The notes beneath the pieces are model-generated. The model was given only the letters and a program-made list of their open reading frames with translations, was not told where the DNA came from and did not search any database. DNA of 64,000 nucleotides from positions 34,699 through 98,698 of the forward strand of contig CALDEU010000060.1 in assembly GCA_937942395.1 (NCBI GenBank). Reading direction: 5' to 3'. Origin of the DNA: an uncultured Collinsella sp. Lineage in GTDB: Bacteria; Actinomycetota; Coriobacteriia; Coriobacteriales; Coriobacteriaceae. Made by a program: the position numbers and the translations under genes. Below, one piece after another: positions 2,905 through 62,172 of the stretch. The stretch's first letter is position 1, and each line of letters opens with the position of its first letter.

Positions 2905-5805
2905 ATGACCCAGCCCTTGCCCTGGGAAAAGAATGCCGCGGTACCCGTGCCGCCCGTGCCGGAACCCGTGCCGCTCGATGCATACGCTGCCCCCGCCGCG
3001 CCGGAGCCCGAGCTCGTCCCGCTCGACATCTACGACGCTCCCGCACCGGCACCCAAGCCCGCCAAGCCGCTTGTCGACATCGACAGTCTTAATCCCGCCC
3101 AGCGCGAGGCGGTCCTGACCACCGAGGGTCCGCTGCTGGTCCTTGCCGGTGCTGGCTCGGGTAAGACCCGCGTCCTGACCTTCCGCATCGCCCACATGCT
3201 CGGCGACCTGGGTGTTAAGCCCTGGCAGATCCTTGCCATCACGTTTACCAACAAGGCCGCGGCCGAGATGCGCGAGCGTCTGGCGGCACTCATCCCCAGC
3301 GGTACCCGCGGCATGTGGGTGTGCACCTTCCACGCCATGTGCGTGCGCATGCTGCGCGAGGACGCCGACCTGCTGGGCTACACCGGTCAGTTCACCATCT
3401 ACGATGACGATGACTCAAAGCGCATGGTGCGTGACATTATGCAGGCGCTCGGTATCGAGCAAAAGCAGTTCCCCATCAACATGATCCGCAGCAAGATCAG
3501 CTCGGCAAAAAACGCCATGATCGGGCCCGAGGACATGCTCAAATCCGCCGACAGCCCTAATGACAAAAAGGCTGCGCAGGTCTACCTGGAGCTGGAGCGC
3601 CGCCTGCGCGCCGCCAACGCGATGGACTTCGACGATCTGCTCGTGCGCACGCTCGAGCTGCTGCGCACCCGCCCCGAGGTGCTCGACAAGTACCAGGAGC
3701 GCTTCCGCTACATTAGCGTCGACGAGTATCAGGACACCAACCACGTCCAGTACGAGATCGCCAACCTGCTGGCCGCCAAGTACCAAAACCTCATGGTCGT
3801 AGGCGACGATGACCAGTCCATTTACAGCTGGCGCGGCGCCGACATCACCAACATCCTGGACTTTGAGAAGGACTTTAAAAACTGCAAGACCGTTAAGCTG
3901 GAGCAGAACTACCGCTCCACGGGCCATATCCTGAGCGCCGCCAACGCCGTGGTGCGTCACAACTCGCAGCGCAAGGACAAGCGCCTGTTTACGGCCGAGG
4001 GCGACGGCGAGAAGATCCAGGCCTTCCAGGCAAGCGATGAGCGCGACGAGGGCCGCTGGATTGCCGGCGAGATCGAAAAACTGCATGCCAAAGGCACGAG
4101 CTACGACGATATCGCCGTGTTCTACCGCACCAACGCGCAGTCGCGTATCCTCGAAGATATGTTCCTGCGCGCGGGCGTGCCCTACAAGATCGTGGGTGGC
4201 ACGCGATTCTTCGACCGTGCCGAGATCCGCGACGTCATGGCCTACCTCAAGATGATTGTGAACCCGGCCGACGAGATGAGCGTCAAGCGCGTCATCAACA
4301 CACCGCGCCGCGGCATCGGCTCCACCTCGATCCAAAAGATCGAGCGGCTGGCGCGCGACAACCGTTGCTCGTTCTTCCAGGCCTGCGAGATCGCAACAGC
4401 CGAGACGGGCATGTTTAGCGCCAAGGTGCGCAATGGCCTGTCGAGCTTTGTGTCGCTGGTGCGCGAGGGTCGCCGCATGGACGGCGAGCTCAAGGACGTT
4501 GTCGAGATGATCGTCGATAAGACGGGCCTGCTGCAGGCTTTCCGCGCCGAGGGCACCATGGAGTCCGAGAGCCGCGCCGAGAACATCCAGGAATTCCTGG
4601 GTGTCGCTGCCGAATTTGAGGAGACGCACGAGGATATCGAAGGTACGCTCGAGAGCTTGGAAGAGCTGCGCGCTGCCGGTGTTGCCGATGTGCCTGTCAG
4701 CGCCGAGCCCGAGTCCGTCGTGGTGAGCGCGCCCGCGCCCGAACCGGGGCCATCTGCCCCGGCATCCTCGTTTGAGGCGCTCGTCGGCGCGCGCGATGCC
4801 GCGGGCTCCAATCCGCTCGATAGCTTGGCCGCTCCGGCGCTGTCTCCGCAGGATGCCCTGGCCGCCGCCATCGCGGGCAACGCGTATGCCGCGCCGACGG
4901 AGATGCCGGCGGGTGCCGTGCATGCCGACGAGATCGAGCGCACCTACGGTCCGCTCACCTGTAAGGCGCTGCCGGCGCTCATGGAGTGGCTGGCCCTGCG
5001 CTCCGACTTGGATTCCCTGGCCGGCGAGACGCATGCCATTACCATGATGACCATCCACTCCGCCAAGGGCCTGGAGTTCCCGGCGGTGTTCGTGGCCGGC
5101 ATGGAGGAGGGTATCTTCCCGCACGTGCACGACTTTGGCGGTAGTGACGATCCGGGCAAGCTCGAGGAGGAGCGTCGCTTGGCCTACGTCGCCATCACGC
5201 GTGCTCGCAAGCGCCTGTTCCTGACCTATGCGGCCACGCGTCGCACCTACGGCTCGACCTCTGCCAACCCGCGCTCGCGCTTCCTCAACGAGATTCCGTT
5301 TGAGGATATCGAGTTTAGCGGCATCGGTTCTGCCGGTTTTGAGGGCACGGGCTGGGAGAAGCGCGGCGACCGTCACGGCACCTTTGGCTCGGGCATGGGC
5401 TCGGATATGTACGGCGGCAAGGTGTTTGGCTCGCATACGCGCTCGACCGGCGGTTCCGGTTCGCGCGGCGGATCGAGCTTTGACGATTTCTTTGGTGGCA
5501 GCAGCTACGGGACCGAACGCCATCGTGGGGTCTCGCCCGACGCCGGCCGTGTTGCCTCGACCTTTGGCTCGGGCGCGCCGCGAGCCAAAAAGCCGTCGTC
5601 CAAGGTGTCCCCGACGGTGGAACGCAAGGTCGATCGCGCCAGCGCATCGCAGGACTTTGCCGCGGGCGATACCGTGAGCCATAAGACCTTTGGCACGGGT
5701 ACCGTGATCTCGGTCGCCGGAGACATGATCGAGGTTCAATTCGAGAAGACCGGCCAGACCAAAAAGTTGATGAAGGGCTTTGCACCGATCGTTAAACTGT
5801 CGTAA
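2905..5805 (+). CDS. pcrA: ATP-dependent DNA helicase PcrA/UvrD (superfamily 1) with a long low-complexity linker and a C-terminal Tudor-like domain.
   Basis: Walker A (AGAGSGKT), helicase motifs II-VI, and a C-terminal DFAAGDTVSHKTFGTGTV...IEVQF motif typical of PcrA. Confidence 0.9.
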   Translation: MTQPLPWEKNAAVPVPPVPEPVPLDAYAAPAAPEPELVPLDIYDAPAPAPKPAKPLVDIDSLNPAQREAVLTTEGPLLVLAGAGSGKTRVLTFRIAHMLGDLGVKPWQILAITFTNKAAAEMRERLAALIPSGTRGMWVCTFHAMCVRMLREDADLLGYTGQFTIYDDDDSKRMVRDIMQALGIEQKQFPINMIRSKISSAKNAMIGPEDMLKSADSPNDKKAAQVYLELERRLRAANAMDFDDLLVRTLELLRTRPEVLDKYQERFRYISVDEYQDTNHVQYEIANLLAAKYQNLMVVGDDDQSIYSWRGADITNILDFEKDFKNCKTVKLEQNYRSTGHILSAANAVVRHNSQRKDKRLFTAEGDGEKIQAFQASDERDEGRWIAGEIEKLHAKGTSYDDIAVFYRTNAQSRILEDMFLRAGVPYKIVGGTRFFDRAEIRDVMAYLKMIVNPADEMSVKRVINTPRRGIGSTSIQKIERLARDNRCSFFQACEIATAETGMFSAKVRNGLSSFVSLVREGRRMDGELKDVVEMIVDKTGLLQAFRAEGTMESESRAENIQEFLGVAAEFEETHEDIEGTLESLEELRAAGVADVPVSAEPESVVVSAPAPEPGPSAPASSFEALVGARDAAGSNPLDSLAAPALSPQDALAAAIAGNAYAAPTEMPAGAVHADEIERTYGPLTCKALPALMEWLALRSDLDSLAGETHAITMMTIHSAKGLEFPAVFVAGMEEGIFPHVHDFGGSDDPGKLEEERRLAYVAITRARKRLFLTYAATRRTYGSTSANPRSRFLNEIPFEDIEFSGIGSAGFEGTGWEKRGDRHGTFGSGMGSDMYGGKVFGSHTRSTGGSGSRGGSSFDDFFGGSSYGTERHRGVSPDAGRVASTFGSGAPRAKKPSSKVSPTVERKVDRASASQDFAAGDTVSHKTFGTGTVISVAGDMIEVQFEKTGQTKKLMKGFAPIVKLS

Positions 5806-5811
5806 TCCCGG

Positions 5812-5942
5812 CGGACCTGGGCGGGCGTATGGGGCAACATCGCCTGCTCGGGCAGTCCTGCGCAAGACGGAGGCCACATTAAGTGGCCTCCTTTGCGTGC
5901 GGAACTCGCGATCGATGTTGCCCCATACGCCCGCCCAGGTCC
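5812..5942. repeat. 30-bp perfect inverted repeat (5812-5841 / 5913-5942) enclosing an inner terminator-like hairpin (5868-5890, followed by a T-tract).
   Basis: Seen directly. The outer arms are exact reverse complements. Confidence 0.6.
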
Positions 5943-11765: not shown

Positions 11766-12032
11766 GAGCGCGAAAACCGGCTCCAGAACCGATTCGGGCG
11801 CGTTCAAAATGCGGATTCGGGCGGTGCTTGCCGCCTGCCAGACACGCCGGTGGTCAAAAAACGCCGTTTGTGAGTACTGTCACAAACGGCGTTTCATTTT
11901 AGGTATGGAAAATAATGAACAAAGTTATAAGAACTGTACGTTAATGAGTGATCATCGACTTCCAATTTGGCGCTAGCTGACGGTGATTAGGGAGTTTCAA
12001 GTCGAGTTTTGCCGATTTCGACCAAGAATCGC

Positions 12033-12067
12033 TGCTACTAAAAAGGCAACAGTACTCATATTTGCCC
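12033..12067. repeat. Solo copy of the 35-bp terminal inverted repeat of the MITE-like element at 27811-28003.
   Basis: CTGCTACTAAAAAGGCAACAGTACTCATATTTGCC versus CTGCTACTAAATTGGTGACAGTACTCATATTTGCC at 27969-28003. Confidence 0.55.
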
Positions 12068-12138
12068 TTTTTTGGCCACAAGCCCTAAAACAAGCCTCGC
12101 CAGGGTCGGGAAGCGGGCCAAATCGTCGGCCTCGAGGC

Positions 12139-16913: not shown

Positions 16914-19508
16914 TTGAAGCTCATCATCGCCGAGAAAAACGACGCCGCGCGTCAGATCGCCGAGCGGCTGTCCACGGGTAAGCCTAAAAAGGACAAGGTG
17001 TACAACACCGCCATCTACCGTTTTGAGTGGAAGGGCGAGGAGTGCGTGACGATCGGTCTTGCCGGTCACATCCTTGCGCCCGATTTTTGCGACAGCGTGC
17101 TGTTCGATAAAAAGCTGGGTTGGTATTCGGTGACCGAGGACGGTGAGATGCTGCCGGCCGATATGCCCGATGGCCTGGCCCGCCCGCCGTACGACACCAA
17201 GCGCAAGCCGTTCCTTGCCGACGGCATTTCCATTAAGGGCTGGAAGCTCGAGAGCCTGCCTTATCTCACCTGGGCACCCGTCATTAAGCTACCGGCCGAG
17301 AAGGAGCTCATTCGTTCGCTCAAGAACCTGGCTAAGAAGTCCGACAGCGTCATCATCGCCACGGACTTTGACCGCGAGGGCGAGCTGATCGGTTCGGACG
17401 CCCTCAACAAGGTGCGTGAGGTGGCGCCCGACTTGCCGGTTGCCCGCGCCCAATACTCTTCGTTTACCAAGGCCGAGATCACGCACGCCTTCGATAATCT
17501 CGTCTCACTCGACCAGAACCTGGCCGACGCCGGCGAGAGCCGCCAGCACATCGACCTCATTTGGGGCGCGGTGCTCACGCGCTATCTGACGCTCGCCAAG
17601 TTCGGCGGCTTTGGTAACGTGCGCTCTGCCGGCCGCGTGCAGACGCCGACGCTCGCCCTGGTGGTCGAGCGCGAGCGCGAGCGCATGGCGTTTGTGCCCG
17701 AGGACTATTGGCAGATTCGCGGCATGGGTGCCGCGCAGGGCGCCGCCGAGGACGACCGCTTTAAGATTGCACACAAGACGGCGCGTTTTACCGACAAGGA
17801 TGCTGCCGAGACGGCGTACGGCCATGTCGACGGTGTCGCGACGGCGACCGTTGCCGCGGTGACCAAGCGCTCGCGTAAGCAGCAGCCGCCCACGCCGTTT
17901 GCGACGACCTCGCTGCAGGCTGCCGCCGCGGCCGAGGGCATCTCGCCTGCGCGTACGATGCGCATCGCCGAGTCCCTCTACATGGCCGGTCTCATCAGCT
18001 ACCCGCGTGTCGACAATACCGTGTACCCTGCGACGCTCGATCTGGGCGCCGTGGTGAGCGATCTGGCAAAGATCAACCCGGCGCTGGCGCCGGTGTGCAA
18101 AAAGGTGCTCGCCGGTCCCATGAAGCCCACGCGCGGCAAGGTCGAGACCACCGATCACCCGCCGATCTATCCCACCGGCGAGGGCGATCCGTCCACGCTC
18201 GACGGCGGCCAGCGCAAGCTCTACGACCTCATTACCCGTCGCTTCCTGGCGACGCTCATGGGTCCCGCGACCATCGAGAACACCAAGCTCGAGCTCGACG
18301 TGAACGGCGAGCCGTTCGTGGCCTCGGGCGATGTGCTCGTGACCCCGGGTTTCCGCGAGGCCTACCCGTATGGCCTTAAACGCGACGAGCAGATGCCGCC
18401 GCTGGAGCAGGGCGATACGGTCGACGTGTTCGACATTAAGCTCGAAGCCAAGCAGACCGAGCCGCCCGCGCGCTACAGCCAGGGCAAGCTCGTGCAGGAG
18501 ATGGAGAAGCGCGGCCTGGGTACCAAGTCCACGCGTGCGAGCATCATCGAGCGCCTGTATGCCGTGCGCTATCTCAAAAATGATCCCGTTGAGCCGAGCC
18601 AGCTGGGCATCGCCATCATCGACGCGCTGACGCAGTTTGCCCCGCGCATCACGAGCCCCGATATGACCAGCGAGCTCGATGGCGATATGACCCGTGTGGA
18701 GCGCGGCGAGGATACCGAAGAGCATGTCGTGACGCACTCGCGCGCGCTGCTGGCCGGCGTGCTCGACGAGCTGCTCAAGCACACGCAGGAGCTGGGCGAC
18801 GCCATCAGCGACGCCGTCACGGCCGATGCGCGCGTGGGCGCCTGCCCCAAGTGCGGCAAGGACCTGGTTATGAAGACGAGCGCCAAGACCCGCGGCAGCT
18901 TTATCGGCTGCATGGGCTGGCCCGACTGCGACGTGACCTATCCGGTGCCGAGCGGCGTCAAGGTGAGCCCGCTCGAGGGCGAGGCCGCCGTGTGCCCCGA
19001 GTGCGGTGCACCGCGCATTAAATGCCAGCCGTTCCGCCAGAAGGCCTTCGAGATTTGCGTGAACCCCACGTGCCCCACCAACTACGAGCCCGACCTTAAG
19101 GTGGGCGAGTGCAAGGTGTGCGCCGAGGCAGGACGCCATGGCGATCTGATCGCGCACAAGAGCGAGAAGAGCGGCAAGCGCTTTATCCGCTGCACCAACT
19201 ATGACGATTGCGGCGTGAGCTATCCGCTGCCGGCGCGCGGCAAGCTCGAGGCGACGGGCGAGACCTGTCCCGAGTGCGGCGCTCCCATCGTGGTGGTCAA
19301 CACAGCGCGCGGCCCGTGGCGTATCTGCGTCAACATGGACTGCCCGACCAAGGAGAAGAAGCCCGCCCGCGGCCGCAAGACCACGACCAAGGCGAGCACG
19401 ACGAAGAAGACTTCGACGGCAAAGAAGGCCACGGCTAAGAAAGCCACTGCCGCCAAGAAGTCGACCGCGAAGAAGTCGACTGCCAAGAAAGCAGCCGCTG
19501 ACAAGTAA
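16914..19508 (+). CDS. topA: Type IA DNA topoisomerase (TTG start) with four C-terminal zinc ribbons and a Lys/Ala/Thr-rich basic tail.
   Basis: TOPRIM N-terminus (KLIIAEKNDAARQIA), catalytic-domain motifs, four CxxC...CxxC modules, and a tail of (S/A)TAKK repeats. Confidence 0.85.
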   Translation: MKLIIAEKNDAARQIAERLSTGKPKKDKVYNTAIYRFEWKGEECVTIGLAGHILAPDFCDSVLFDKKLGWYSVTEDGEMLPADMPDGLARPPYDTKRKPFLADGISIKGWKLESLPYLTWAPVIKLPAEKELIRSLKNLAKKSDSVIIATDFDREGELIGSDALNKVREVAPDLPVARAQYSSFTKAEITHAFDNLVSLDQNLADAGESRQHIDLIWGAVLTRYLTLAKFGGFGNVRSAGRVQTPTLALVVERERERMAFVPEDYWQIRGMGAAQGAAEDDRFKIAHKTARFTDKDAAETAYGHVDGVATATVAAVTKRSRKQQPPTPFATTSLQAAAAAEGISPARTMRIAESLYMAGLISYPRVDNTVYPATLDLGAVVSDLAKINPALAPVCKKVLAGPMKPTRGKVETTDHPPIYPTGEGDPSTLDGGQRKLYDLITRRFLATLMGPATIENTKLELDVNGEPFVASGDVLVTPGFREAYPYGLKRDEQMPPLEQGDTVDVFDIKLEAKQTEPPARYSQGKLVQEMEKRGLGTKSTRASIIERLYAVRYLKNDPVEPSQLGIAIIDALTQFAPRITSPDMTSELDGDMTRVERGEDTEEHVVTHSRALLAGVLDELLKHTQELGDAISDAVTADARVGACPKCGKDLVMKTSAKTRGSFIGCMGWPDCDVTYPVPSGVKVSPLEGEAAVCPECGAPRIKCQPFRQKAFEICVNPTCPTNYEPDLKVGECKVCAEAGRHGDLIAHKSEKSGKRFIRCTNYDDCGVSYPLPARGKLEATGETCPECGAPIVVVNTARGPWRICVNMDCPTKEKKPARGRKTTTKASTTKKTSTAKKATAKKATAAKKSTAKKSTAKKAAADK

Positions 19509-19540: not shown

Positions 19541-19580
19541 CGGGGCCGGGCGCGCAAATGCAAATGCGCGCCCGGCCCCA
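19541..19580 (+). terminator. Rho-independent terminator after topA.
   Basis: Hairpin GGGGCCGGGCGCGC-AAATGCAAAT-GCGCGCCCGGCCCC. Confidence 0.55.
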
Positions 19581-19586
19581 CTTCTA

Positions 19587-19654
19587 AGTTGCGGTGAAAT
19601 AGGGACTGTTTTTGCTGGCAAAAGGCCTAATTGATCCCTATTTCACCGCAAGTT
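19587..19654. repeat. Family-A palindromic repeat, copy 1: AAGTTGCGGTGAAATAGGGA...TCCCTATTTCACCGCAAGTT, ~18-bp arms and ~28-nt loop.
   Basis: Seen directly. Related copies at 21975-22042 and 62069-62137. Confidence 0.65.
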
Positions 19655-19671
19655 ATGATCAGTTGTTGGGA

Positions 19672-20718
19672 TTACTTCACTTCGACGGGTGCAGCGCCGG
19701 GGTAGCGGTCCTCAAAGTCCAGACGGTATTTGTTGTCGTTGGTGCCCGCTACGTTGTCGCGCGCCAGCGGTGCCACGATCTCGTCCTTGTGGTTGGCGGG
19801 GCTGGAGTACTCAAGGCTGATCTCCCAGGCATCGCAAATGACGTCAATGCGATTCTCCAGGTCGTCGTAGAGCGCGATGATGTCTTTCCACGAGCTGTAG
19901 TTCTGCGAGTCGATGGGAACGTCCAGGTCCTCGACCTCGTCCTTGAGGTCGTCGATCTGATCCTCGAGCGCCTCGGCGGCATCGCTGGCCGACTGACGCG
20001 AGCTTCGGTCATCCTTAAGGTAATACGTGTTAAACGTGGTGGCGCAGTCGCGAACCTGCTGATCAAGATCGGAGAGCCTGCTGTAGTAGGAGCTCAGCTG
20101 GTCGTAGACGTTTTGCTCGCTGATGGTGGCGGCATCGTGGACGTCATCGTCATCATCATCGTCAAGCTTGTTGGGGTCGCCCTTGACGGACGCATCGTCG
20201 TTATCGTGGTCGATCTTGACCTTCTCGATCGTCGTGCCCTTGGTATCATCGGCGCCCTTGTCGAAAGGCTTGATCATAAAGAACACGACGAGCGCGATAA
20301 TCACGACGATTAGCGCGGCGATGATGCCGATGAGCAGGGCGTTGTTGTTTTTGGGAGCAGCGGGGGCGCCGGCCTGCGGAGCGGCGGTCGGTATGGGCTG
20401 CTGCGGCGCGGAGCCGGCTGGCGCCGCCCATTGCTGCGTCGTGCCAACTTCGGGCTGGGGAGCGGGCGCGGGCTGATGAGCGGACTGCACGGTCACGTCC
20501 GCCTGCTGGGACTGAGTCGCCGCGGGCTGCTGCGCAGACTGAACCGTGGTCGCGGCGGTGTCGAAGGCGGCATCGGACGCGGCGACATGTTCGGCTGCCT
20601 GCGCATTCTCTTGCGACTGAGAGGCCTGGCCATCATCGGTTACCGGCGTTCCGCAGCTGGTGCAAAAACGCTCGTCGTCTTTCAGAAGCTTGCCGCAATG
20701 GGTACAAAACCGGGGCAT
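19672..20718 (-). CDS. Zinc-ribbon membrane protein: N-terminal CxxC-x-CxxC ribbon, Gln/Ala/Pro-rich linker, one TM helix, acidic extracytoplasmic domain.
   Basis: MPRFCTHCG...CTSCG ribbon; hydrophobic segment LLIGIIAALIVVIIALVVFFMI. GGAAGGA RBS before ATG 20718. Confidence 0.65.
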   Translation of the reverse strand: MPRFCTHCGKLLKDDERFCTSCGTPVTDDGQASQSQENAQAAEHVAASDAAFDTAATTVQSAQQPAATQSQQADVTVQSAHQPAPAPQPEVGTTQQWAAPAGSAPQQPIPTAAPQAGAPAAPKNNNALLIGIIAALIVVIIALVVFFMIKPFDKGADDTKGTTIEKVKIDHDNDDASVKGDPNKLDDDDDDDVHDAATISEQNVYDQLSSYYSRLSDLDQQVRDCATTFNTYYLKDDRSSRQSASDAAEALEDQIDDLKDEVEDLDVPIDSQNYSSWKDIIALYDDLENRIDVICDAWEISLEYSSPANHKDEIVAPLARDNVAGTNDNKYRLDFEDRYPGAAPVEVK

Positions 20719-21036
20719 GATGGTTCCTTCCATTCGATGTGTTGGCTAGATTATAAGGTGGTTCAGGTGCGGTTGGGCCGCGCCGACCCAACTGGTTATG
20801 TGAGGATGATCATGTCGCGCAAGCCCTGTCGCATGCGTCACAATGAGTGCGGCGTGCTGGGTGTCCGGCGCGGCCGTTTATCGACGGCTCGGTAGAATGC
20901 GATGGTGGGGAGTGAGTCTGTGTACTGCGGCGAGCAAGGTCGGGGTGGCGGCGACAGCGTAGAGGCGTTCCGGTTCCCGCCGGGGGATGCGCCCCTCGCT
21001 GTGCGCGATTGCTCGCGTCGAGTGTTTTGTGCCGGA

Positions 21037-21975
21037 ATGTTGACCGGAGCGCTTGCCTCGGTGATGAGTCTTGGCGGTTGTGCCGCGCGCCGCAACGAGG
21101 CTGAGGGTTCCGCTGTCTCTGTCAAACAAACGTCAAAGCGGTCATCCGCGACAAAAGCGACGGCCGCCCCTAAGTCTTCTTGGATTGCCGCCATTCAGCA
21201 AGATATCGAGGCCCTGGTCGAGCCGTATGGCGACTCCGTCTCGGTTTACTCCGTGGCGCTTGATCCTCAAACGTTCGCGTCGCTCGATGGTGAAGTCGCT
21301 GTGGCGCCGGACGCGCGACATGTGGCGGCAAGCATCATCAAGCTTCCCATTCTCGCTTGTGCGCTCGAGACCGTGACGGCGGGCGGGCTGTCCCTCGACG
21401 AGCAGATAACGGTAACGCAGCAGGATATCGTGGGTGGCAGCGGCAACATTCAGTCGCGCGGCGCGGGTGTGTCGTACAGTATTGACGAGCTGCTGCACGC
21501 TATGATCGCCCAGAGCGATAACGTGGCAGCGAACCTTGTTATCGGCAGGCTTGGCATGGATACGGTCAACGAAACGTGCGCCGCATTGGGACTGACCCAG
21601 ACCGTGCTCGCTCGTTTGATGATGGACACCGAGGCCCAGGCACAAGGTCGCGAGAACTATACGAGCGCCCGTGATGCTGCGGCTGTGTTGCAACGGCTGG
21701 CGGCGGGGACAATCGCGACGCCCGAGCTGTGCGAGCGAGCGCGCGGATATCTGCTGGCGCAGGAAGACGCACGCGGTATTGTCGAAGGCGTTCCCGGCGG
21801 CGTTTTGGTCGCGCACAAAACGGGCAGCCTGGCGAATGCTCAGCACGATGCCGCAATCGTCTACGCCGAGCGCCCTTACGTGCTGGCAATCCTCACCCAA
21901 GACCTCGAACGCGAGCAGGCCCTAGCCCTCGAGCGCGATATTTCCTTCGCCATCAACGCCCGCGCCCACTCCTAA
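21037..21975 (+). CDS. Class A beta-lactamase-like serine hydrolase. Probable lipoprotein.
   Basis: Lipobox LGGC; S-x-x-K (SIIK), SDN and KTG motifs in the canonical order. Confidence 0.75.
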   Translation: MLTGALASVMSLGGCAARRNEAEGSAVSVKQTSKRSSATKATAAPKSSWIAAIQQDIEALVEPYGDSVSVYSVALDPQTFASLDGEVAVAPDARHVAASIIKLPILACALETVTAGGLSLDEQITVTQQDIVGGSGNIQSRGAGVSYSIDELLHAMIAQSDNVAANLVIGRLGMDTVNETCAALGLTQTVLARLMMDTEAQAQGRENYTSARDAAAVLQRLAAGTIATPELCERARGYLLAQEDARGIVEGVPGGVLVAHKTGSLANAQHDAAIVYAERPYVLAILTQDLEREQALALERDISFAINARAHS

Positions 21976-22042
21976 CTTGCGGTGAAATAGGGATTGTATT
22001 TGCTGCTAGAAGGCGTATTCAGTCCCTATTTCACCGCAACTT
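21975..22042. repeat. Family-A palindromic repeat, copy 2.
   Basis: AACTTGCGGTGAAATAGGGATTG...CAGTCCCTATTTCACCGCAACTT. Same orientation and loop-sequence similarity to copy 1. Confidence 0.65.
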
Positions 22043-22061
22043 TGGAAAGGCACCTTTAGCC

Positions 22062-22140
22062 GTTGGGGACGTTCTTAAACGACTAGTCATTAACGAACGT
22101 CCCCAACGACTAGTCATTTAAGAACGTCCCCAATGACTAG
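22062..22140. repeat. Family-B tandem repeat, locus 1: three head-to-tail ~27-bp units GACTAGTCATT-(T)AA(C/G)GAACGTCCCCAA.
   Basis: Seen directly. No spacers between units. Related loci at 48738-48923 and 62145-62172. Confidence 0.65.
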
Positions 22141-22229: not shown

Positions 22230-22913
22230 ATGGCTTTTGAGCCCGCTCAACATAGCTTTATCACGCTCGAGGGCGTCGATGGCGCCGGCAAGTCCACGCA
22301 GGCGCGCCTGCTTGCCCGCGCGCTCGAGCTCGCTGGCTACCAGGTTGTGAGCCTGCGCGAGCCGGGCGGTACCGCCATCAGCGAAAAGATCCGTGCTCTG
22401 CTGCTCGACCCCGCCAACACGGCGATGGGTGACACCTGCGAGCTGCTGCTCTACGAGGCAGCGCGTGCCCAGCTGGTACACGAGGTCATCGCCCCCGCCC
22501 TTGCGGCCGGCAAGGTGGTCCTGTGCGACCGTTTCTACGATTCCACGACCTGCTATCAGGCGTTTGCCGATGGTCTCGACCGTCAGATGGTACGCGATGC
22601 CAACAACCTGGCTGTCGCCGGTACGCATCCGGCGCTCACGCTCGTCTACCACATCACACCCGAGCAGGCGGCGCTACGCATGGCAGCCCGTGGCGCGGCA
22701 GATCGCATGGAGGCAAAAGGCATGACCTTCCAAGAGCGCGTCTACCAGGGATTTTGCGCCATTGCCGCCGAGGAACCAAACCGCGTAAAGCTCATCGACG
22801 CGACCGCGACCGTCGAGGAAGTCTTTGAGAAGACGGTCGAGCTGGTTCGCGCGTACGGTCTCGACATTCCCCAAGATGTCGTCGCCGCCGCGCTTGCCCA
22901 GGAGGCTGAGTAA
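22230..22913 (+). CDS. tmk: Thymidylate kinase.
   Basis: P-loop LEGVDGAGKST, DRF/DRY motif and LID region. Confidence 0.9.
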   Translation: MAFEPAQHSFITLEGVDGAGKSTQARLLARALELAGYQVVSLREPGGTAISEKIRALLLDPANTAMGDTCELLLYEAARAQLVHEVIAPALAAGKVVLCDRFYDSTTCYQAFADGLDRQMVRDANNLAVAGTHPALTLVYHITPEQAALRMAARGAADRMEAKGMTFQERVYQGFCAIAAEEPNRVKLIDATATVEEVFEKTVELVRAYGLDIPQDVVAAALAQEAE

Positions 22914-27763: not shown

Positions 27764-27810
27764 AACTATGGCTTTATAGGGGGTCTGTTTATATGCCCTG
27801 TGCAAAAAAC

Positions 27811-28003
27811 GGCAAATATGAGTATTGTTACTAGATTAGTAGCAGTAAAAACAAAGAAACTTGGGCCGAAAATTTGGATTCATTGAAGAGATAATAAACG
27901 AATGTGGAATATCTTGGCGCCAAGCAGGTTGTGCGGAACTCAAAAAGGGCTCGCGGGGCGGAAAAACGCTGCTACTAAATTGGTGACAGTACTCATATTT
28001 GCC
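27811..28003. mobile_element. MITE-like element, 193 bp, with 35-bp terminal inverted repeats GGCAAATATGAGTAYTGT...TTAGTAGCAG. No transposase.
   Basis: Left TIR 27811-27845 and right TIR 27969-28003 are reverse complements (about 5 mismatches). AT-rich core. A solo TIR is at 12033-12067. Confidence 0.55.
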
Positions 28004-28136
28004 GTAATTTGCACACGGCACCCTGAGGCGGGTGCCCCGGAGCTCCCCGTAGGGGAGCTCCGGGCTTCATGGGGGCACGAATGGTCCGCTCCGACCTGCA
28101 AAATCTGTGCTCACGGTGCGAATGACGCCCCTAACC

Positions 28137-28165: not shown

Positions 28166-28495
28166 GCGCTACGTTCCTGCCAGGCTGTGGTTGCGGACGG
28201 ACGAAATGTCCATCCTAGTCCAAGACAGACGCGGTCAAAGGGATCCACGTAAGCGACCGCGTGCGCGCGGCGCGATCATGGCGCGTCCTAGATGTAAGCC
28301 GCACCGTCCGTTCTACTTTCTTTGGGGCAATACCGCCTCGCGGGCGAGCGGGCCAGTCGTGAAGGTGGCTATGGCCTCCCGAGCAAACACCCCGGTGCGC
28401 AAGTGTGGGGTCAAATACCAGGTCAGCTGGTGGGAACACCCGTTATTCCGCGCAACGCACGGATTGTATACGACACAGAAGGCAGGGTAGTGGAC

Positions 28496-48271: not shown

Positions 48272-48766
48272 ATGGCTCAACCCAAGATTCTTCTCACACG
48301 CATCGATGACCGGTTTATTTACGGGCAAGACGTTGAGCTGTGGAACGAAGTCGTGGGTTCCAACCTTGTTTTAATCGTCAACGATGAGATTGCGGCTGAT
48401 TCGCGCAAGTGGGCCCCTATGAGGGTGGCGACACCCGAGGGTGTCTGGACGCGGTTTTTCTCGGTGCAAAGGACTGTCGACATCATTCATACCGCAACGC
48501 CGCGCCAAAGGATTCTCATCATGGTGGCGTCGCCCACGGATGCACTCGCGCTGGTTAAGGGCGGTGTGCCGATCACCAAGATCAGCATTGGCCATATGCA
48601 GGCGGGGGAGGGCAAGCACCCCATAACGCCCGCAGTCGCCGTAGACGATACGGACATCGCTGCCTTCAAAGAGCTACAAGAACTCGGCATAGAGCTAGAA
48701 ATCCGTTACCTCCCCAGCTCCAATCCCGACCCCATCCAACTAGTCATTGGGGACGTTCTTAAATGA
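48272..48766 (+). CDS. Orphan PTS Man-family EIIB paralog with an altered C-terminus. The last 11 codons and the stop codon lie inside a family-B repeat.
   Basis: ~60% aa identity to the IIB at 38548-39030 up to ...ELEIRYLPSS, then repeat-derived sequence NPDPIQLVIGDVLK*. Confidence 0.7.
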   Translation: MAQPKILLTRIDDRFIYGQDVELWNEVVGSNLVLIVNDEIAADSRKWAPMRVATPEGVWTRFFSVQRTVDIIHTATPRQRILIMVASPTDALALVKGGVPITKISIGHMQAGEGKHPITPAVAVDDTDIAAFKELQELGIELEIRYLPSSNPDPIQLVIGDVLK

Positions 48767-48923
48767 CTAGTCAAACGGGACACCCTTGGCACTTGGGGAC
48801 GTTCCTTATGTGCCGGCCTTTTAGGAACGTCCCCAAGTGTCGGCAGATTGGGACAGTCCTTCTCGCCAAACGTTAAAGACTGTCCCCAATGACTAGTCAT
48901 TTAAGAACGTCCCCAATGACTAG
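48738..48923. repeat. Family-B repeat, locus 2: multiple direct and inverted GGGGACGTTC / GACTAGTCATT units forming nested hairpins.
   Basis: Seen directly. Includes the hairpin CTTGGGGACGTTCCTTA...TAGGAACGTCCCCAAG. Confidence 0.65.
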
Positions 48924-48929
48924 GTAGAA

Positions 48930-51672: not shown

Positions 51673-51737
51673 GGGTACCTCCTTTGCGTCGTGGCATAAT
51701 TGTACCACGGTGTGTCCAAGCGACCGGTACCGTCGAA

Positions 51738-51963
51738 TCGTCTCAATCTGTAACAGTTGGGATCGAAAAACTCGGCTAGATGTTACAGATTGAGATTAAA
51801 GGGATTGACCTGTGGCGTTTGTCTCGATCTGTAACAGTTAGACGGTCGAAAGTGGGCTACGTGTTACAGATTGAGATCTTTCAGCCCTGGTCGCCCGTTC
51901 GTCTAAATCTATAACAGTTAGGATTGAAAATCCCTGCTAGATGTTACAAATCGAGACAAACGG
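51738..51963. repeat. Family-C palindromic repeats: three tandem ~62-bp units, each GTCTCAATCTGTAACAG-loop-CTGTTACAGATTGAGAC.
   Basis: Seen directly at 51738-51797, 51817-51879 and 51897-51963. A fourth copy is at 56625-56692. Confidence 0.65.
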
Positions 51964-51976
51964 CCTGCACGGGCCG

Positions 51977-52030
51977 AGCAAAAAAATAGGCCGCATGCGA
52001 ACCCGTGGAGGGATTCGCATGCGGCCGACA
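51977..52030 (-). terminator. Rho-independent terminator of GH1 gene #1.
   Basis: 13-bp stem GGCCGCATGCGAA...TTCGCATGCGGCC followed on the minus strand by TATTTTTTTG. Confidence 0.65.
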
Positions 52031-52048: not shown

Positions 52049-53470
52049 TTAGGCCATAAGCAGGCCGGTCTCCGAGACGTTCTTGTACCAGTACGCGCTC
52101 GCCTTGGGATAGCGCTTCTGGGTCTCAAAGTCGATGTAGAACAGGCCATAGCGCTTGTTATAGCCGTTGGTCCAGGAGAACTGGTCCTGCAGCGACCACA
52201 CGAAGTAACCGTCGACGTTCACGCCGCCGTCGATTGCCTTGAGAATCCATGCGAGATGCTGACGCATGTAGTCGATGCGAGGGGCGTCGTCGATAAAGCC
52301 GTCCTCAAAGTCGTCCTTATAGCCCATGCCGTTCTCGGTGATGTAGATCTTCTTGTAGTTGGGGTAATCGTTCTTAATGCGGAGCAGCAGGTCGTAGAGA
52401 CCCTCGGGATAGATAATCCAGTCCCAATCGGTGGTGGGTACGCCTTCGCGCACGCATGACTCGCCCACGCCCTTGAGGAACCAGCGCGAGGAGCCCTTGT
52501 CGCCGGTGCCATTGTGGTTGATGTCGTTTTCGCCCTCGGCGGCACGCAGGAACTGGCACTTGTAGGTGTTGACGCCCAGGCAATCGTTGTAGGGGAGCGC
52601 GGCGGTCAGCGCGGCGATGTCCTCGTCGCGGACGTCGAGCTCGCCGCCGGCGATATGGGCCAGCTTGGTCGCAGCCTCCATGGTGTCGGCTGCATAGTGG
52701 CCGCGGAAGGTGGCGTCGAGTACCCAGCGGTTGTTGATGACGTCGGCCATGCGAGCTGCCTCGCAGTCGGCGGCGTTGTTGGGATCGAGGGGATACTTGG
52801 GCTCCAGGTTCTGGACAATGCCGATCTCACCCTCAAAGCCGCCCTCATGGAAGGCGACGACAGCCTTGGCGTGGGCCACCATCATGTTGTGCATGAGCTG
52901 GAAGGCCTTGTCCAGGCGGTACTTCTCGCCGTGCGGCCAGTTGCCGACGATAAAGCTGCCCTCGGCGGTCGCGGGAATCTCGTTAAAGGTAAACCAGTGC
53001 TTGACCTCGGTGAACTCGGCAAAGCAGAACTTGGCGTACTCGACAAAGGCGTCGATCGTCGTGCGCGTCAGGAAGCCCTCGCCGCCGTTCTGGTAAAAGG
53101 CCTCGGGCGTATCGAAGTGATCGAGCGTGACATAGGGGATAACGCCGGCTTTATTGCAGGTGGCGAAAAGCTCGTGATAGAAGGCGACACCTTCGGGATT
53201 GATCTCGCCAGTGCCGTTGGGGAAGATGCGGCTCCAAGCGATGGAGACGCGGATACCGTTGATGCCAAAACGCTGGCACAGGTCGATATCGACCGGATAC
53301 TTGTTGTAGAAATCGCTTGCGGGGTCGGGGGAGAAGCGACCCTGGGCAGCCAGGAAATCGTCCCAGGGCACTTTGCCCTTGCCGTGCGTGCGGGTCTCGC
53401 CTTCAACCTGGTAAGCAGCGGTGGCGCCGCCAAACACAAAGCCGTCGGGGAACTGCATGGGGTTGGTCAT
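52049..53470 (-). CDS. lacG: GH1 6-phospho-beta-galactosidase/glucosidase, copy 1.
   Basis: FVFGGATAAYQVEG N-terminus, NEP and ITENG catalytic Glu motifs. Co-operonic with a LacE-like IICB. Confidence 0.9.
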   Translation of the reverse strand: MTNPMQFPDGFVFGGATAAYQVEGETRTHGKGKVPWDDFLAAQGRFSPDPASDFYNKYPVDIDLCQRFGINGIRVSIAWSRIFPNGTGEINPEGVAFYHELFATCNKAGVIPYVTLDHFDTPEAFYQNGGEGFLTRTTIDAFVEYAKFCFAEFTEVKHWFTFNEIPATAEGSFIVGNWPHGEKYRLDKAFQLMHNMMVAHAKAVVAFHEGGFEGEIGIVQNLEPKYPLDPNNAADCEAARMADVINNRWVLDATFRGHYAADTMEAATKLAHIAGGELDVRDEDIAALTAALPYNDCLGVNTYKCQFLRAAEGENDINHNGTGDKGSSRWFLKGVGESCVREGVPTTDWDWIIYPEGLYDLLLRIKNDYPNYKKIYITENGMGYKDDFEDGFIDDAPRIDYMRQHLAWILKAIDGGVNVDGYFVWSLQDQFSWTNGYNKRYGLFYIDFETQKRYPKASAYWYKNVSETGLLMA

Positions 53471-53547
53471 GAGTCATCCTTTCAGTGGGATACGGAATAG
53501 GGGGAGGTGCCCGAACTGGGGATCCGGGCACCAACAGAGGGAGGAAG

Positions 53548-55326
53548 CTAGTCGAGGTTCTCGCGGAGCCACTTGATGGCGCCAGCGGGGTCGCGAGTAA
53601 GGTCGATATATTCCTTACCGCGGGGAGCGAGCAGCTTAATGCCCAGACGATCGGTGTCGGCCTTCATGTCGTTGTAGTAGCTACGAACCTGCGGGGCGAG
53701 CACGATGACGTCGTACTGATCCATGATGGCAGTGTGCTGACCATAGGCGCCTGCGGAGGAAGCGATGTTCTCTCCGGTCTGTGCCGCACCTTCCTTGATG
53801 GCGTTGGCGAGCATGGCAGAGGTGCCGGCGCCGGCGCACAGGACGAGGACCTTCAGACCGTCGACATCCTTCTTGGCGGATGTGTCGGCGGCGGGCTCGG
53901 GCTGATCGGCGACAGGCTTGCTGTCGGCGGCAGCGGCGGTCGGCTCGACGGAAGCGGTAGTCTGCTCGACAGCGGGCGCAGGGGCGTTGGCGGCAATGGT
54001 GGCAGCACCATCGGACTCGAGACCCAGCTCGGCGGCGCGCTCGGCCTCCTGGTCGCAGAGCAGCTTATCGTATGCCTTTAAGAACGGCAGGTAGATGATG
54101 GCGTCCAGCAAGATGATGATCGCGACAAATACCAGGGCAATAAGCTGGAAGTTCGTGGTGATGAAGATGCCGATGGGGGCGGGGGTGGCCCAAGGCACCA
54201 CGAAGGAGAAGCCGTTCATGCCCACGTTATCGATAAAGAACTTGGCAACACTCACGTTGACGCAGCCGGCGGCAACAAAGGGGATGAGCATGTAGGGGTT
54301 AAGGATCATCGGCGCGCCAAAGAGCAGCGGTTCGTTGACGGCGAAGGCAACAGGAACAATCGAGGCCTTACCGACGGCTTTGAGCTGCTTGGACTTCATA
54401 AAGAGAATCAGCAGAAGCGGCACGATGAAGGTGGCGCCGGTGCCGCCGAACTCACCCACGAGCGACATGTTAAAGGTGAGGGAGTGGGCGGGGTGGCCAC
54501 CGGCCAGCAGAACCTGCAGGTTCTCGGCCTGGTTGGCAAGACGGATGGGGTCGATGCCCGGCTGGACGATCGAGGGGCCGTGGACACCGATGAACCAGAA
54601 GAACGCGGTGGCTGCCTGGATAAGGATAAGGCCAGGATAGGTTTCTGCTGCAGTGAAGAGCGGGGAGAGCAGCTTGATGAGCAGCTCGGAGAACGGAACG
54701 CCCATGAGGTTGCGCACGACGACATCGATGATGCCGCAGATGATGACGGCGCCGCCAAAGGGGATGATGTCACGGAAGTTCTGAGCGATGGCGCCCGGGA
54801 CCTCCTTGGGCAGCTTAATGGTCAGATCGCGAGAGACGCAGAACTTATAGACCCAAACGGTAATGAACGCGGCGATATAGGCCGAGAACAGACCACGCGT
54901 ACCCATGCTGGTGCAATCGAAGACCGAAAGCTCGGAGCCGTTGAACTTGGTGGTGAACTGCGTGACTGCGAGCAGCAGCATGCTGCACTGGGCGGCCACC
55001 ATGGTGGAACCGTCGTTGAGCACCTTGCCGGCGGGCATGCGACGGTTCATGGAAGCCGTAAAGTTCTTGGCAGTGGTGCCGGCGACCATGATGCCCATGA
55101 CGCCCATGGTGAAGTTGTACAGCTTGTTGCACCAGTCGATGAGCGGCTGGGGCAGCGTGATGCCAACTACGCCAGGAAGGGTGGCAATGAGCAGAAAGAT
55201 CGAAGAGGTGAGGACGATGGGCATGCACCCAAGGAATCCGTCCTTAATAGCCTGGAGGTAGATGTTCCTCGAGATCTTCTCAAAGAACGGCTGATGCTTT
55301 TCGAGCATCTTTACGATGGCGTCCAT
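53548..55326 (-). CDS. lacE: PTS lactose/cellobiose-family EIICB (LacE-like), copy 1.
   Basis: N-terminal IIC collinear with LacE (KPFFEKISRNIYLQAIKDGF...). C-terminal IIB domain with the Cys motif (LVLCAGAGTS). Confidence 0.9.
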   Translation of the reverse strand: MDAIVKMLEKHQPFFEKISRNIYLQAIKDGFLGCMPIVLTSSIFLLIATLPGVVGITLPQPLIDWCNKLYNFTMGVMGIMVAGTTAKNFTASMNRRMPAGKVLNDGSTMVAAQCSMLLLAVTQFTTKFNGSELSVFDCTSMGTRGLFSAYIAAFITVWVYKFCVSRDLTIKLPKEVPGAIAQNFRDIIPFGGAVIICGIIDVVVRNLMGVPFSELLIKLLSPLFTAAETYPGLILIQAATAFFWFIGVHGPSIVQPGIDPIRLANQAENLQVLLAGGHPAHSLTFNMSLVGEFGGTGATFIVPLLLILFMKSKQLKAVGKASIVPVAFAVNEPLLFGAPMILNPYMLIPFVAAGCVNVSVAKFFIDNVGMNGFSFVVPWATPAPIGIFITTNFQLIALVFVAIIILLDAIIYLPFLKAYDKLLCDQEAERAAELGLESDGAATIAANAPAPAVEQTTASVEPTAAAADSKPVADQPEPAADTSAKKDVDGLKVLVLCAGAGTSAMLANAIKEGAAQTGENIASSAGAYGQHTAIMDQYDVIVLAPQVRSYYNDMKADTDRLGIKLLAPRGKEYIDLTRDPAGAIKWLRENLD

Positions 55327-56612: not shown

Positions 56613-56624
56613 ACGTGCTCGGCC

Positions 56625-56692
56625 TGTCTGTCTCAATCTGTAACAGCTAGGACCGAAAAACTCGGCTAGTTGTTACAGATCGAGACAAACGT
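56625..56692. repeat. Family-C palindromic repeat, copy 4: ~24-bp arms and a palindromic loop CCGAAAAACTCGG.
   Basis: Seen directly. Downstream of both lacI#1 and GH1#2. Confidence 0.65.
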
Positions 56693-56706
56693 GCGACACG
56701 GTCCGC

Positions 56707-56756
56707 CCAAAAAAGGCCGGGGGAGGCGCGCCGTGTGACGTGCCGCTCCCGGCTGA
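56707..56756 (-). terminator. Terminator of GH1 gene #2.
   Basis: GC-rich hairpin followed on the minus strand by a T-tract. Confidence 0.5.
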
Positions 56757-56798: not shown

Positions 56799-58238
56799 CT
56801 AGTCCAGACGACGGGTCTGCGCCACGTGCTTATACCAGTATGCGCTTGCCTTGGGCGTGCGCTTCTGGGTTTCAAAGTCAACGTAGAAGAAGCCATAGCG
56901 CTTGTTGTAGCCATTGGTCCAGGAAAACTGATCCTGCAGGCTCCACAGGAAGTAGCCGCCCACGTTGACGCCCACCTCCATGGCCTTGAGCAACCAGCGC
57001 AGGTGCTGCTCGATGTAGTCGATGCGCGGCTGGTCGTCCACAAAACCGTTCTTGTAGGGGTCCTTGTAGCCCATGCCGTTCTCGGTGATGAAGATCTGCT
57101 TGTAGTTGGGGTAGCGCTGCTTAATGTAGACGAGCAGATCGAACAGACCCTCGGGATAGATGATCCAGTCCCAGTCGGTGGTGGGGATGCCGGGCTTGTT
57201 CACATGCTCGCCAATGCCCTTGACGCGCCAGCGACCGGTGCCCTTCTCGCCCGTACCGTTGTGGTGCAGGTCGTTCTCGCCATCGTAAGCCTTCAAAAAA
57301 CGGCACTGATAGTTGTTAACGCCCAGGTAGTCGTTGTAGAGCGCTGCCTCGCGCATAATCTCGAGGTCCTCGTCCAAGATCTCGATGGTGCCGCCCGAGA
57401 CGGCAGCCAGGCGGTTGGCGCACTCGAGGGTGTCGGGGGCATACTCGCCGCGGAACGTCGCGTCGAGCAAAAACTGGTTTTGCAGCACGTGCTCGTTGTT
57501 GGCGGCTTTGATGTCGGCGGGGTCGTTCTCGTTGAGCGGGTACTTAAACTCCAGCGACTGGATGACGCCGATTTTGCCCTTAAAGCCGCCGTTGTGGAAG
57601 GCCAGCACGGCCTTGGCGTGGGCGAGCATCATGTTGTGCTCGCACTGGAAGGCCTCGGCCAGATGCGCCTTGACGCCACCGGGGAAGGTGCCCTCGATGT
57701 AGGTGTTGGAGGCGTCGGCCCAGATCTCGTTAAAGGTGAACCAGTAGGTCACCTGGTCGGCGTACTCCTTAAAGCAGAAGGTGGCAAAGTCCACAAAGGC
57801 GTCGATGGTCTCGCGGTTGAGGAAGTCGCCCTTCTCAAAGAGGGGAAGCGGCGTGTCAAAGTGATGCAGCGTGACGAACGGCTCAACGTGGTGCTTGTGG
57901 CACTCGGCGAAGAGATCGTGGTAGAACTGGACGCCCTCGGGGTTGATTTCGCCGGTGCCGTTGGGGAAGATGCGGCTCCAGGCGATGGAGAGGCGAATGC
58001 CGTTGATGCCGAACTCCTCGCACAGCTCCAGGTCGACAGGGTACTGGTTGTAGAAGTCCGAAGCGGGATCGGGGGAGAAGCGCCCCTGGGCCTCCAGAAA
58101 GTCGTCCCAGGCAACCTTGCCCTTACCGTGAGTGCGGGTCTCGCCCTCTACCTGGTAGGCAGCGGTGGCGCCGCCAAAGACAAAGTCCTCGGGAAACTGC
58201 GCGGGCGGGTTGGTGACGCTAGCAGGATTAACGGACAT
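56799..58238 (-). CDS. lacG: GH1 6-phospho-beta-galactosidase/glucosidase, copy 2.
   Basis: Same motifs as copy 1; ~70% aa identity by eye. Confidence 0.9.
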   Translation of the reverse strand: MSVNPASVTNPPAQFPEDFVFGGATAAYQVEGETRTHGKGKVAWDDFLEAQGRFSPDPASDFYNQYPVDLELCEEFGINGIRLSIAWSRIFPNGTGEINPEGVQFYHDLFAECHKHHVEPFVTLHHFDTPLPLFEKGDFLNRETIDAFVDFATFCFKEYADQVTYWFTFNEIWADASNTYIEGTFPGGVKAHLAEAFQCEHNMMLAHAKAVLAFHNGGFKGKIGVIQSLEFKYPLNENDPADIKAANNEHVLQNQFLLDATFRGEYAPDTLECANRLAAVSGGTIEILDEDLEIMREAALYNDYLGVNNYQCRFLKAYDGENDLHHNGTGEKGTGRWRVKGIGEHVNKPGIPTTDWDWIIYPEGLFDLLVYIKQRYPNYKQIFITENGMGYKDPYKNGFVDDQPRIDYIEQHLRWLLKAMEVGVNVGGYFLWSLQDQFSWTNGYNKRYGFFYVDFETQKRTPKASAYWYKHVAQTRRLD

Positions 58239-58304
58239 GATGATCCAATCGTCTAAATCGAAGGGCCAGCCGGTCTTGGATGGTCGGCTGGCCCTGGGCG
58301 TTAC

Positions 58305-62068: not shown

Positions 62069-62172
62069 AAGTTGCGGGGAAATAGGGACTGAATAGGGGC
62101 TGGCGGGCGCAAAACAATCCCTATTCCACCGCAACTCATCCCGAGATAGTCATTGGGGACAGTCTTGGTGCG
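62069..62172. repeat. Degenerate family-A hairpin (62069-62137) immediately followed by a partial family-B unit (62145-62172).
   Basis: AAGTTGCGGGGAAATAGGGACTG...ATCCCTATTCCACCGCAACT, then ATAGTCATTGGGGACAGTCTTGG. Confidence 0.55.

Follow-up and report, generated by a model that had tools for sequence, protein, structure and literature searches.

Gene content of the topA-tmk interval

The window, as we term the whole stretch of DNA analysed here, comprises 64,000 nucleotides of an uncultured Collinsella sp. (contig CALDEU010000060.1, assembly GCA_937942395.1) and belongs to a genome of the C. aerofaciens group. Between its topA and tmk genes lie two divergently oriented genes, a minus-strand gene for a zinc-ribbon membrane protein (hereafter ZnR) and a plus-strand gene for a beta-lactamase-like protein (hereafter bla), and this pair is bracketed by two copies of a palindromic repeat, family A. 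A preliminary description of the DNA read the pair as a cassette inserted between topA and tmk; the gene order of relatives points instead to an ancestral gene pair. The genes and repeats concerned are the following.

16914-19508, plus strand: topA (type IA topoisomerase; Pfam), the conserved left flank, 94-100% identical across relatives
19542-19579, plus strand: GC-rich perfect hairpin with 15-bp arms, from the inverted-repeat listing and haplotype comparison
19587-19654, no strand given: family-A copy 1, core TTGCGG..CCGCAA at 19589-19651, between the convergent 3' ends of topA and ZnR
19672-20733, minus strand: ZnR, zinc-ribbon membrane protein (Pfam Zn_Ribbon_1)
20902-21975, plus strand: bla, Beta-lactamase2-family protein (Pfam PF13354 at 1.7e-65)
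21975-22042, no strand given: family-A copy 2, core at 21977-22039
22057-22140, no strand given: family-B array of units with TAGTCATTGGGGACGTTCTTAAA in both direct and inverted orientation, lying between copy 2 and the promoter region of tmk
22230-22913, plus strand: tmk (thymidylate kinase; Pfam), the conserved right flank, followed by holB and then a PSP1-domain gene
62070-62136, no strand given: family-A copy 3, core at 62072-62134, from the arm search and folding

The upstream neighbour of topA in the window is hypB, and the holB and PSP1-domain genes downstream of tmk were assigned with Pfam. The ZnR product comprises an N-terminal zinc ribbon, a low-complexity linker, one transmembrane helix and a C-terminal domain, and its earlier identification was confirmed by Pfam. 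The likely start of bla is at 21037, giving MLTGALASVMSLGGC with a lipobox, so that the product is probably a lipoprotein, and its translation shows the SxxK (SIIK), SDN and KTG motifs. Because its score against the NCBIfam equivalog for class A beta-lactamases is 101 bits, below the cut-off of 200, the protein is, judged by its sequence, best named a class-A-related serine hydrolase, and the label of class-A beta-lactamase-like holds only in that looser sense.

ZnR and bla in relatives

In order to follow the gene pair, bla homologues at graded identity to that of the window were placed in their genomic context. ZnR and bla lie between topA and tmk in every relative with bla, down to a bla identity of 54%.

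L133 and L134, bla 82% identical: hypA-hypB-topA-ZnR(-)-bla(+)-tmk-holB-PSP1; no family A, family B at both junctions
L135, bla 75% identical: the same order; family A at both junctions
L137 and L138, bla 61% identical: the same order with an extra zinc-ribbon gene between ZnR and bla; no family A
L139 and L140, bla 54% identical: the same order; no family A

The contigs behind this synteny measure 127 kb (L133/L134) and 368 kb (L135). Relative to the window, topA is 99% identical in L133, topA and tmk are 96% and 77% identical in L137 and 94% and 74% in L139, and L135 shows identities of 99% (topA), 69% (ZnR), 75% (bla), 91% (tmk) and 95% (holB). Every relative examined has ZnR between topA and tmk, its identity ranging from 52 to 95% against 94-99% for topA. 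The additional gene of the more distant relative L137 (4566-5978) encodes a zinc-ribbon protein of 470 aa.

Since relatives (L137, L139) carry both genes at this position without flanking family-A repeats, the insertion reading is refuted, and ZnR and bla are, on the evidence of gene order, to be regarded as ancestral residents of the topA-tmk interval. Such relatives had been named in advance in the preliminary description as evidence against insertion, and L133 adds a case in which family B is found instead. Across more than 90 loci, no empty allele of the form topA-A-tmk turned up. Polymorphism in the interval is high, bla having been lost in most close relatives; this gene is absent, for example, from L107, L124, L063 and L072. 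Because the outgroups have bla, this absence would be a secondary loss.

Copy 2 begins 1 nt past the native TAA stop of bla, and a stop codon donated by the element, truncating bla, was considered and rejected, as L133, which lacks family A, has the same '..HS*' C-terminus; copy 2 therefore merely sits 1 nt after the original bla stop. When window positions 19672-21975 were compared with L133, L135, L137 and L139, the lowest identity fell in the low-complexity linker of ZnR and in the divergent promoter that the two genes share. The sliding identity profile describes a gradual trough over this linker and promoter with no step at the family-A copies, and a sharp replacement of ZnR-bla as a block bounded by family A is not supported on this ground. 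The rapid divergence of ZnR and bla may be due either to diversifying selection on surface proteins or to imported alleles.

Family-A copies in the window

The hairpin elements at 19587-19654 and 21975-22042 have the sequence and the shared orientation first described for them. Over their central 23 nt, copies 1 and 2 match at 17 positions when aligned directly and at 8 when one is inverted, against a background mean of 12.2 matches, with 5.7% of pairs reaching 17, and the resemblance of the two loops is borne out. Upstream of each copy the two remain similar over about 18 nt, a stretch that corresponds to the C-rich, weakly conserved flank in the consensus of the family. These two copies had been recorded from the outset, whilst the third, at 62070-62136, and the family-B array beside copy 2 had been missed. 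A search with the arm TTGCGGTGAAATAGGGA, allowing at most three mismatches, returned six matches in the window against 0.10 expected from shuffles, these being the two arms of each of the three elements, and hairpin folding gave z-scores against shuffles of -5.8, -8.7 and -3.7 for the three copies.

Copy 1 directly follows the GC-rich hairpin at 19542-19579, goes together with it as one spacer haplotype, and is orthologous, with an identical spacer, in L075, L107, L135, L160, L171 and L222. The hairpin is probably the topA terminator structure; the consensus terminator scan did not call it and it has no T-run. Before copy 3 there is a terminator-like hairpin that has a T-run, and after the copy comes a family-B motif (62147-62160).

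Anatomy and distribution of family A

An arm-pattern scan covering one genome per species found matches in at least 119 stretches, and the copy sets and placement counts given below were drawn from the matches listed. The comparison loci are mostly metagenome-assembled genomes (MAGs) or metagenome contigs, and the locus counts include orthologues. Essentially all matches fall in Collinsella, in MAGs and isolates alike. Two come from bins of other taxa, L025 (CAVKNR010000148.1, 'Sodaliphilus') and L076 (CAVCKO010000020.1, 'Treponemataceae'); both contigs that carry these elements derive from Collinsella, being 92-95% identical to loci of that genus, and both bins are, from this identity, likely contaminated with Collinsella DNA. 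Two further, low-GC matches are chance single arms.

The family consensus is CCCCTCATAAG followed by TTGCGGTGAAATAGGGACTGTTT, 17 nt, AAACAGTCCCTATTTCACCGCAA and CTTATGAGGGG, that is, 23-nt inverted arms (TTGCGGTGAAATAGGGACTGTTT and AAACAGTCCCTATTTCACCGCAA) around a site-specific 17-nt spacer, with weakly conserved C-rich and G-rich outer flanks, making a unit of 63 nt (core) to about 70 nt overall. The distance from TTGCGG to CCGCAA is exactly 63 nt in 138 of 142 full copies, and a single arm almost never occurs alone. The arms are more than 90% conserved while spacers at different sites are unrelated, 128 copies resolving into 32 spacer lineages. At positions -4/-3 and +3/+4 around the core, T/A is found in 65-75% of copies.

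Placement, determined with a codon-usage gene caller, was convergent for 63 copies, tandem for 47, divergent for five and intragenic for four, and the median distance from a copy to the nearest stop codon was 38 nt; the usual series at a site runs from stop codon to terminator hairpin to family A. Of the generic repeat that the preliminary description had named as a case against insertion, the element has the dispersed distribution, mostly at gene 3' ends, but not the presence in every intergenic region. The window holds three copies in 64 kb (one per 21 kb) and the other loci one extra copy per 53 kb, from which we extrapolate a genome-wide copy number estimated at tens to about a hundred.

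The stem mismatches comprise 48 G:T/T:G and 51 A:C/C:A pairs, with no strand bias, and half-changed stem pairs outnumber compensated ones. This symmetry and this excess indicate that what is conserved in the arms is a DNA sequence, at fixed spacing, and not an RNA helix. A palindromic apical spacer was likewise set aside, the 2.19 symmetric pairs observed not exceeding the 1.87 ± 0.20 expected by chance. The terminator scan makes no call on family A and no T-run follows CCGCAA, so that a canonical Rho-independent terminator was rejected; the element is commonly placed after a separate terminator. Rfam 15 gave no match at the gathering score, and none at permissive thresholds save a chance miRNA match (E=0.34).

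Family A thus described is a Collinsella-restricted element resembling the repetitive extragenic palindromic (REP) sequences and bacterial interspersed mosaic elements (BIMEs) of other bacteria, and is apparently undescribed, a search of the literature having found no description of these Collinsella repeats. Collinsella has been listed among genera rich in inferred insertion sites of horizontal gene transfer (HGT), and palindromes have been noted at such sites generally (PMC7771070).

Occupancy of the two spacers

Around tmk proteins 96-98% identical to that of the window, 80 metagenome loci were fetched, 62 of which, those with a ZnR match, reach into the interval. All but two of these 62 are of the type topA-ZnR'-tmk without bla, the remaining two being bla-positive; over the C-terminal half, the identity of ZnR' is about 65%. 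Among these tmk-anchored loci, family A is present at both junctions, on the tmk side only, on the topA side only or at neither, with gene content constant, from which it follows that the repeats are independent of the genes.

At junction 2 the slot between ..GATTATACCCAGC and ATTTGGGGACGCGCC holds family A, a family-B hairpin (GTTGGGGACGTTCCT..AGGAACGTCCCTAAC), A together with B, or a B array, and the array at 22057-22140 varies in length between relatives. At junction 1 the spacer comes, over its full length between the topA and ZnR stop codons, as alternative haplotypes, either the GC-rich hairpin with family A or a U-tract terminator with one of two B hairpins, and the latter arrangement is found in many near-identical genomes. 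In many genomes B hairpins fill the slots of both junctions. Given this variable occupancy, the bracketing of ZnR-bla by two family-A copies is one of several combinations. Clean filled and empty sites for family A were not found; only replacement-type differences were seen (L057/L069, and junctions 1 and 2).

Recombination at family-A copies

Where bla-positive and bla-negative types are compared, similarity on the right begins inside copy 2, the right arm and flank of which are conserved, whilst the copy 2 spacer and everything leftward are unrelated. L085 retains the right half alone of copy 2, and L141 retains TAAGTTGCGG alone of another family-A copy. L075 has family A at junction 1 only, a deletion that ends in the B array having taken copy 2, the stop codon of bla and the greater part of that array, and the bla open reading frame is lengthened by 20 codons.

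At three unrelated loci, alleles with a gene between two family-A copies (A-gene-A) have counterparts, in other Collinsella species, with a single copy at exactly the matching place, and the flank alignments overlap by 69-71 nt, i.e. by one family-A unit.

PrimPol-helicase locus: L050 3135-6760 and L122 70-3831; single-A alleles in L015, L016, L024, L035, L018 and L049
HipA-like locus: L064 1285-2873 and L094 4088-5676; single-A alleles in L079, L054 and L120
Zinc-ribbon locus: L039 645-1568; single-A alleles in L032 and L040

In the clearest case, that of L039, both single copies are hybrids. The one in L032 takes its left arm and spacer from the left copy and its right arm from the right copy; in the one in L040 only the left arm comes from the left copy, spacer and right arm being those of the right. 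These differing hybrids imply two independent crossovers within the repeat and recombination between family-A copies that removes the intervening DNA; recombination between neighbouring direct copies demonstrably deletes the DNA between them. The recombination hotspot proposed earlier survives in this weaker, general sense, of indels ending in A or B at this and other loci and of hybrids between family-A copies; in the interval itself no identity step coincides with the copies.

The genes bracketed in the clean indels are of lower GC and of accessory or conflict type, namely an AEP-TOTE PrimPol fused to a superfamily 2 helicase, a helix-turn-helix protein with a HipA-like kinase, and a zinc-ribbon membrane protein; other family-A pairs flank a GntR regulator or YqeC/XdhC genes. 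Stretches between family-A pairs that lacked gene calls yielded no rRNA or other RNA genes, and are lower-GC protein genes missed by the codon-usage caller. HipA-like paralogues in two other chromosomal contexts lack family A and are 52-55% identical, possibly deriving from lineages without the element. Neighbouring family-A copies share related spacers far more often than random pairs, and the resemblance between the spacers of copies 1 and 2 may reflect local duplication or gene conversion between neighbours.

A probable ancestral gene pair between spacers colonised by repeats

We consider it likely that ZnR and bla are ancestral genes whose flanking spacers have been colonised by generic REP/BIME-like palindromes, gained, lost and swapped independently of the genes. 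The two spacers, one between the convergent 3' ends of topA and ZnR and the other between the bla 3' end and tmk, would act as slots that short dispersed palindromic repeats colonise, copies of family A being gained, lost or exchanged for family B between near-identical genomes as whole spacer haplotypes. Because they are long and near-identical, neighbouring direct copies recombine with deletion of the DNA between them, and deletions often end inside copies. The arms would be kept by a sequence-specific constraint, such as a binding or mobilising protein or concerted evolution, and not by selection on an RNA helix.

In common with the REP/BIME systems of Enterobacteria and Pseudomonas, family A consists of dispersed, taxon-specific extragenic imperfect palindromes downstream of genes, in convergent and co-directional spacers, found alone or in mosaics (here A with B as its neighbour at copy 2, at copy 3 and in L213, and A and B alternating in slots), varying in presence between close relatives and serving as substrates for recombination and rearrangement. 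It differs in its length, 63-70 nt with 23-nt arms being roughly twice the about 20-40 nt of classical REPs, in its site-specific spacer of fixed length, in that no gene for a REP-associated tyrosine transposase (RAYT, TnpA-REP) and no conserved GTAG-type tetranucleotide was identified for it, and in being, at its estimated copy number, far rarer than the REPs of E. coli or Pseudomonas.

Several points weigh against this explanation. Family A is longer than classical REPs, and no transposase or recombinase was seen near any copy in the loci fetched, so that the term 'REP-like' rests on anatomy, location and behaviour. A tblastn search with E. coli RAYT and IS200 TnpA likewise returned nothing in 1.13 Mb of loci plus the window, which is weak evidence. 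ZnR and bla are far more divergent than their neighbours, and this could reflect the import of diverged alleles by recombination. MAG and metagenome contigs can be chimeric at repeats, the copy number is extrapolated and the locus counts are not phylogenetically independent; the synteny conclusions draw on contigs as long as 127-368 kb and on many loci that agree.

Alternative explanations

Family A might instead be a miniature inverted-repeat transposable element (MITE), its 23-nt arms acting as terminal inverted repeats recognised in trans by the transposase of an insertion sequence (IS), possibly with a TA duplication, and new copies transposing near terminators. Conserved inverted termini, a variable interior, constant length and presence/absence polymorphism between close relatives fit this idea, and the T/A preference at -4/-3 and +3/+4 is compatible with a decayed TA duplication. 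Bacterial MITEs and comparable elements (Correia of Neisseria, RUP and BOX of Streptococcus, and ERIC) are likewise short, non-coding, intergenic and strain-variable in presence, with conserved inverted termini, a variable interior and the possibility of long transcript hairpins. However, filled and empty pairs show no target duplication, family A coming or going in L057/L069 and at both junctions together with its flanks, in place of an unrelated spacer and not as a clean insertion; unrelated spacers between arms that are more than 90% conserved are contrary to recent copy-and-paste; and neither an IS with matching ends (TTGCGGTGAAATAGGG-type termini) nor a transposase was found next to any copy in about 1.1 Mb, nor was such an IS seen between paired arms in the loci fetched. 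We regard this origin as unlikely.

Equally improbable in our estimation is a selected cis-acting element, either the site of a dimeric or tetrameric DNA-binding protein or a 3'-untranslated-region hairpin protecting or terminating transcripts, that spread through its function and not by selfish mobility. An arm sequence conserved at a fixed 17-nt spacing, amid a spacer and surroundings saturated with change, would be expected of such an element, as would the marked preference for sites 8-50 nt beyond a stop codon, typically past a terminator, and the very stable hairpins. Yet the same slot of near-identical genomes may hold the unrelated family B, or nothing, so that no particular gene depends on family A; G:U and A:C mismatches show no strand bias, which argues against a role at the RNA level, and there is no T-run.

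It is very doubtful that family-A copies are dispersed attachment sites, integron-like or Campbell-type, at which circular single-gene cassettes carrying one copy integrate to give A-gene-A, or, in the same vein and with as little likelihood, that A and B are recognition sites of a putative recombinase or transposase, with the A sites docking single-gene conflict or defence cassettes genus-wide as circles with one A. The three independent A-gene-A versus single-A polymorphisms with lower-GC, conflict-type cargo, the hybrid single copies, which are the expected product of reciprocal recombination within the element, and cargo metagenome contigs that are typically of A-to-A length would all agree with such docking. 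Deletion explains the hybrids equally, and at least one of the two (L032/L040) must be a deletion; any repeat at which assemblies break would give short contigs; and cargo paralogues, at 52-55% identity for the HipA-like gene, occur in other contexts without family A. As with integron attC sites, family A is an imperfect palindrome with conserved outer arms and a variable centre, and it brackets some single accessory genes that are polymorphic in their presence. It ends, however, in AAGTTGCGG and CCGCAACTT, without the RYYYAAC/GTTRRRY core sites (the 'GTTATGA' that follows copy 1 does not fit GTTRRRY, and no GTT stands at that place in copy 2); no integrase or attI was seen, and the copies are scattered, not arrayed in tandem and co-oriented, most being solitary at the 3' ends of housekeeping genes. 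At the locus studied here, moreover, ZnR-bla is ancestral in contrast to an integron cassette, and its neighbours in the window are hypB, topA, tmk and holB. The docking reading, if true, would give a gut genus of Actinobacteria its own counterpart of integron cassettes, dispersed and without an integrase.

Paired uptake sequences (the DNA uptake sequences of Neisseria and the uptake signal sequences of Pasteurellaceae), which act as inverted repeats resembling terminators, share with family A genus-specific conserved motifs in inverted pairs downstream of genes, with variable loops; family A differs in being strictly fixed in spacing, almost never single-armed and orders of magnitude rarer.

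Finally, insertion of ZnR and bla as a cassette between topA and tmk, these having once been neighbours, through a mechanism mediated by repeats, with the family-A copies as its boundaries, is scarcely credible: direct copies with related spacers do bracket the segment, single accessory genes elsewhere in the genus are tightly bracketed by family A and have single-A empty alleles, and ZnR and bla are more divergent than their flanks, but the same genes occupy the same position without family A or with family B, no empty allele was found among more than 90 loci, occupancy by family A is independent of gene content, divergence shows no step at the copies, and the spacer haplotype to which copy 1 belongs begins immediately behind the stop codon of topA.

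Family B and other repeats

The core of family B is GGGGACGTTC / TAGTCATTGGGGAC; several hairpin subtypes occur, as do arrays whose units are 27 nt long. Elsewhere in the window it occurs at 48735-48928 and, as mentioned, beside copy 3 (62147-62160), and in relatives at 4837-4900 and 7284 of L133, at about 7000-7100 of L137 and upstream of tmk in L159, L166 and L176; unlike family A, it thus also occurs in L137, a more distant relative.

A third repeat family (CTGCTACTAAA..GGCAACAGTACTCATATTTGCC) forms clusters of direct and inverted copies at 11850-12079 and 27794-28020, the second just upstream of a raiA motif RNA (28175-28435). A fourth (TCTCAATCTGTAACAG.. hairpins; 51732-51985 and 56622-56714) precedes each of two paralogous segments (52067-54602 and 56814-59368) that are about 2.5 kb long, 70-80% identical and 4.75 kb apart. 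The window further holds a perfect 30-nt inverted repeat (GGACCTGGGCGGGCGTATGGGGCAACATCG) at 5813-5942, its arms 70 nt apart.

Assembly artefacts at the repeats

In L008 (7300-7345) a poly-G/poly-C junction lies at copy 1, in L009 (7340-7360) the context switches exactly at the edge of the family-A element, and upstream of tmk in L193 the Illumina adapter AGATCGGAAGAGC lies inside the family-A loop. The THUMP-like or GntR genes upstream, beside copy 1, in L008 and L009 are probable assembly chimeras and were not used as evidence of rearrangement; junctions of these kinds, that of L193 included, were kept out of the evidence. Contigs carrying bla or the HipA-like gene stop at repeats, and very abundant genes (one cluster having 13,691 members) were found only on contigs of about A-to-A length.

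Significance

What appeared to be a mobile cassette is corrected here to an ancestral gene pair with flanking spacers colonised by generic repeats. Collinsella, an abundant and strain-diverse gut genus, has at least two families of REP/BIME-like palindromes, and these are demonstrable substrates for deletions that remove accessory genes, those of defence type included. The same repeats fragment metagenome assemblies and seed chimeric joins and adapter artefacts, and are therefore relevant to the reading of gene presence and absence, of HGT breakpoints and of MAG quality in Collinsella.

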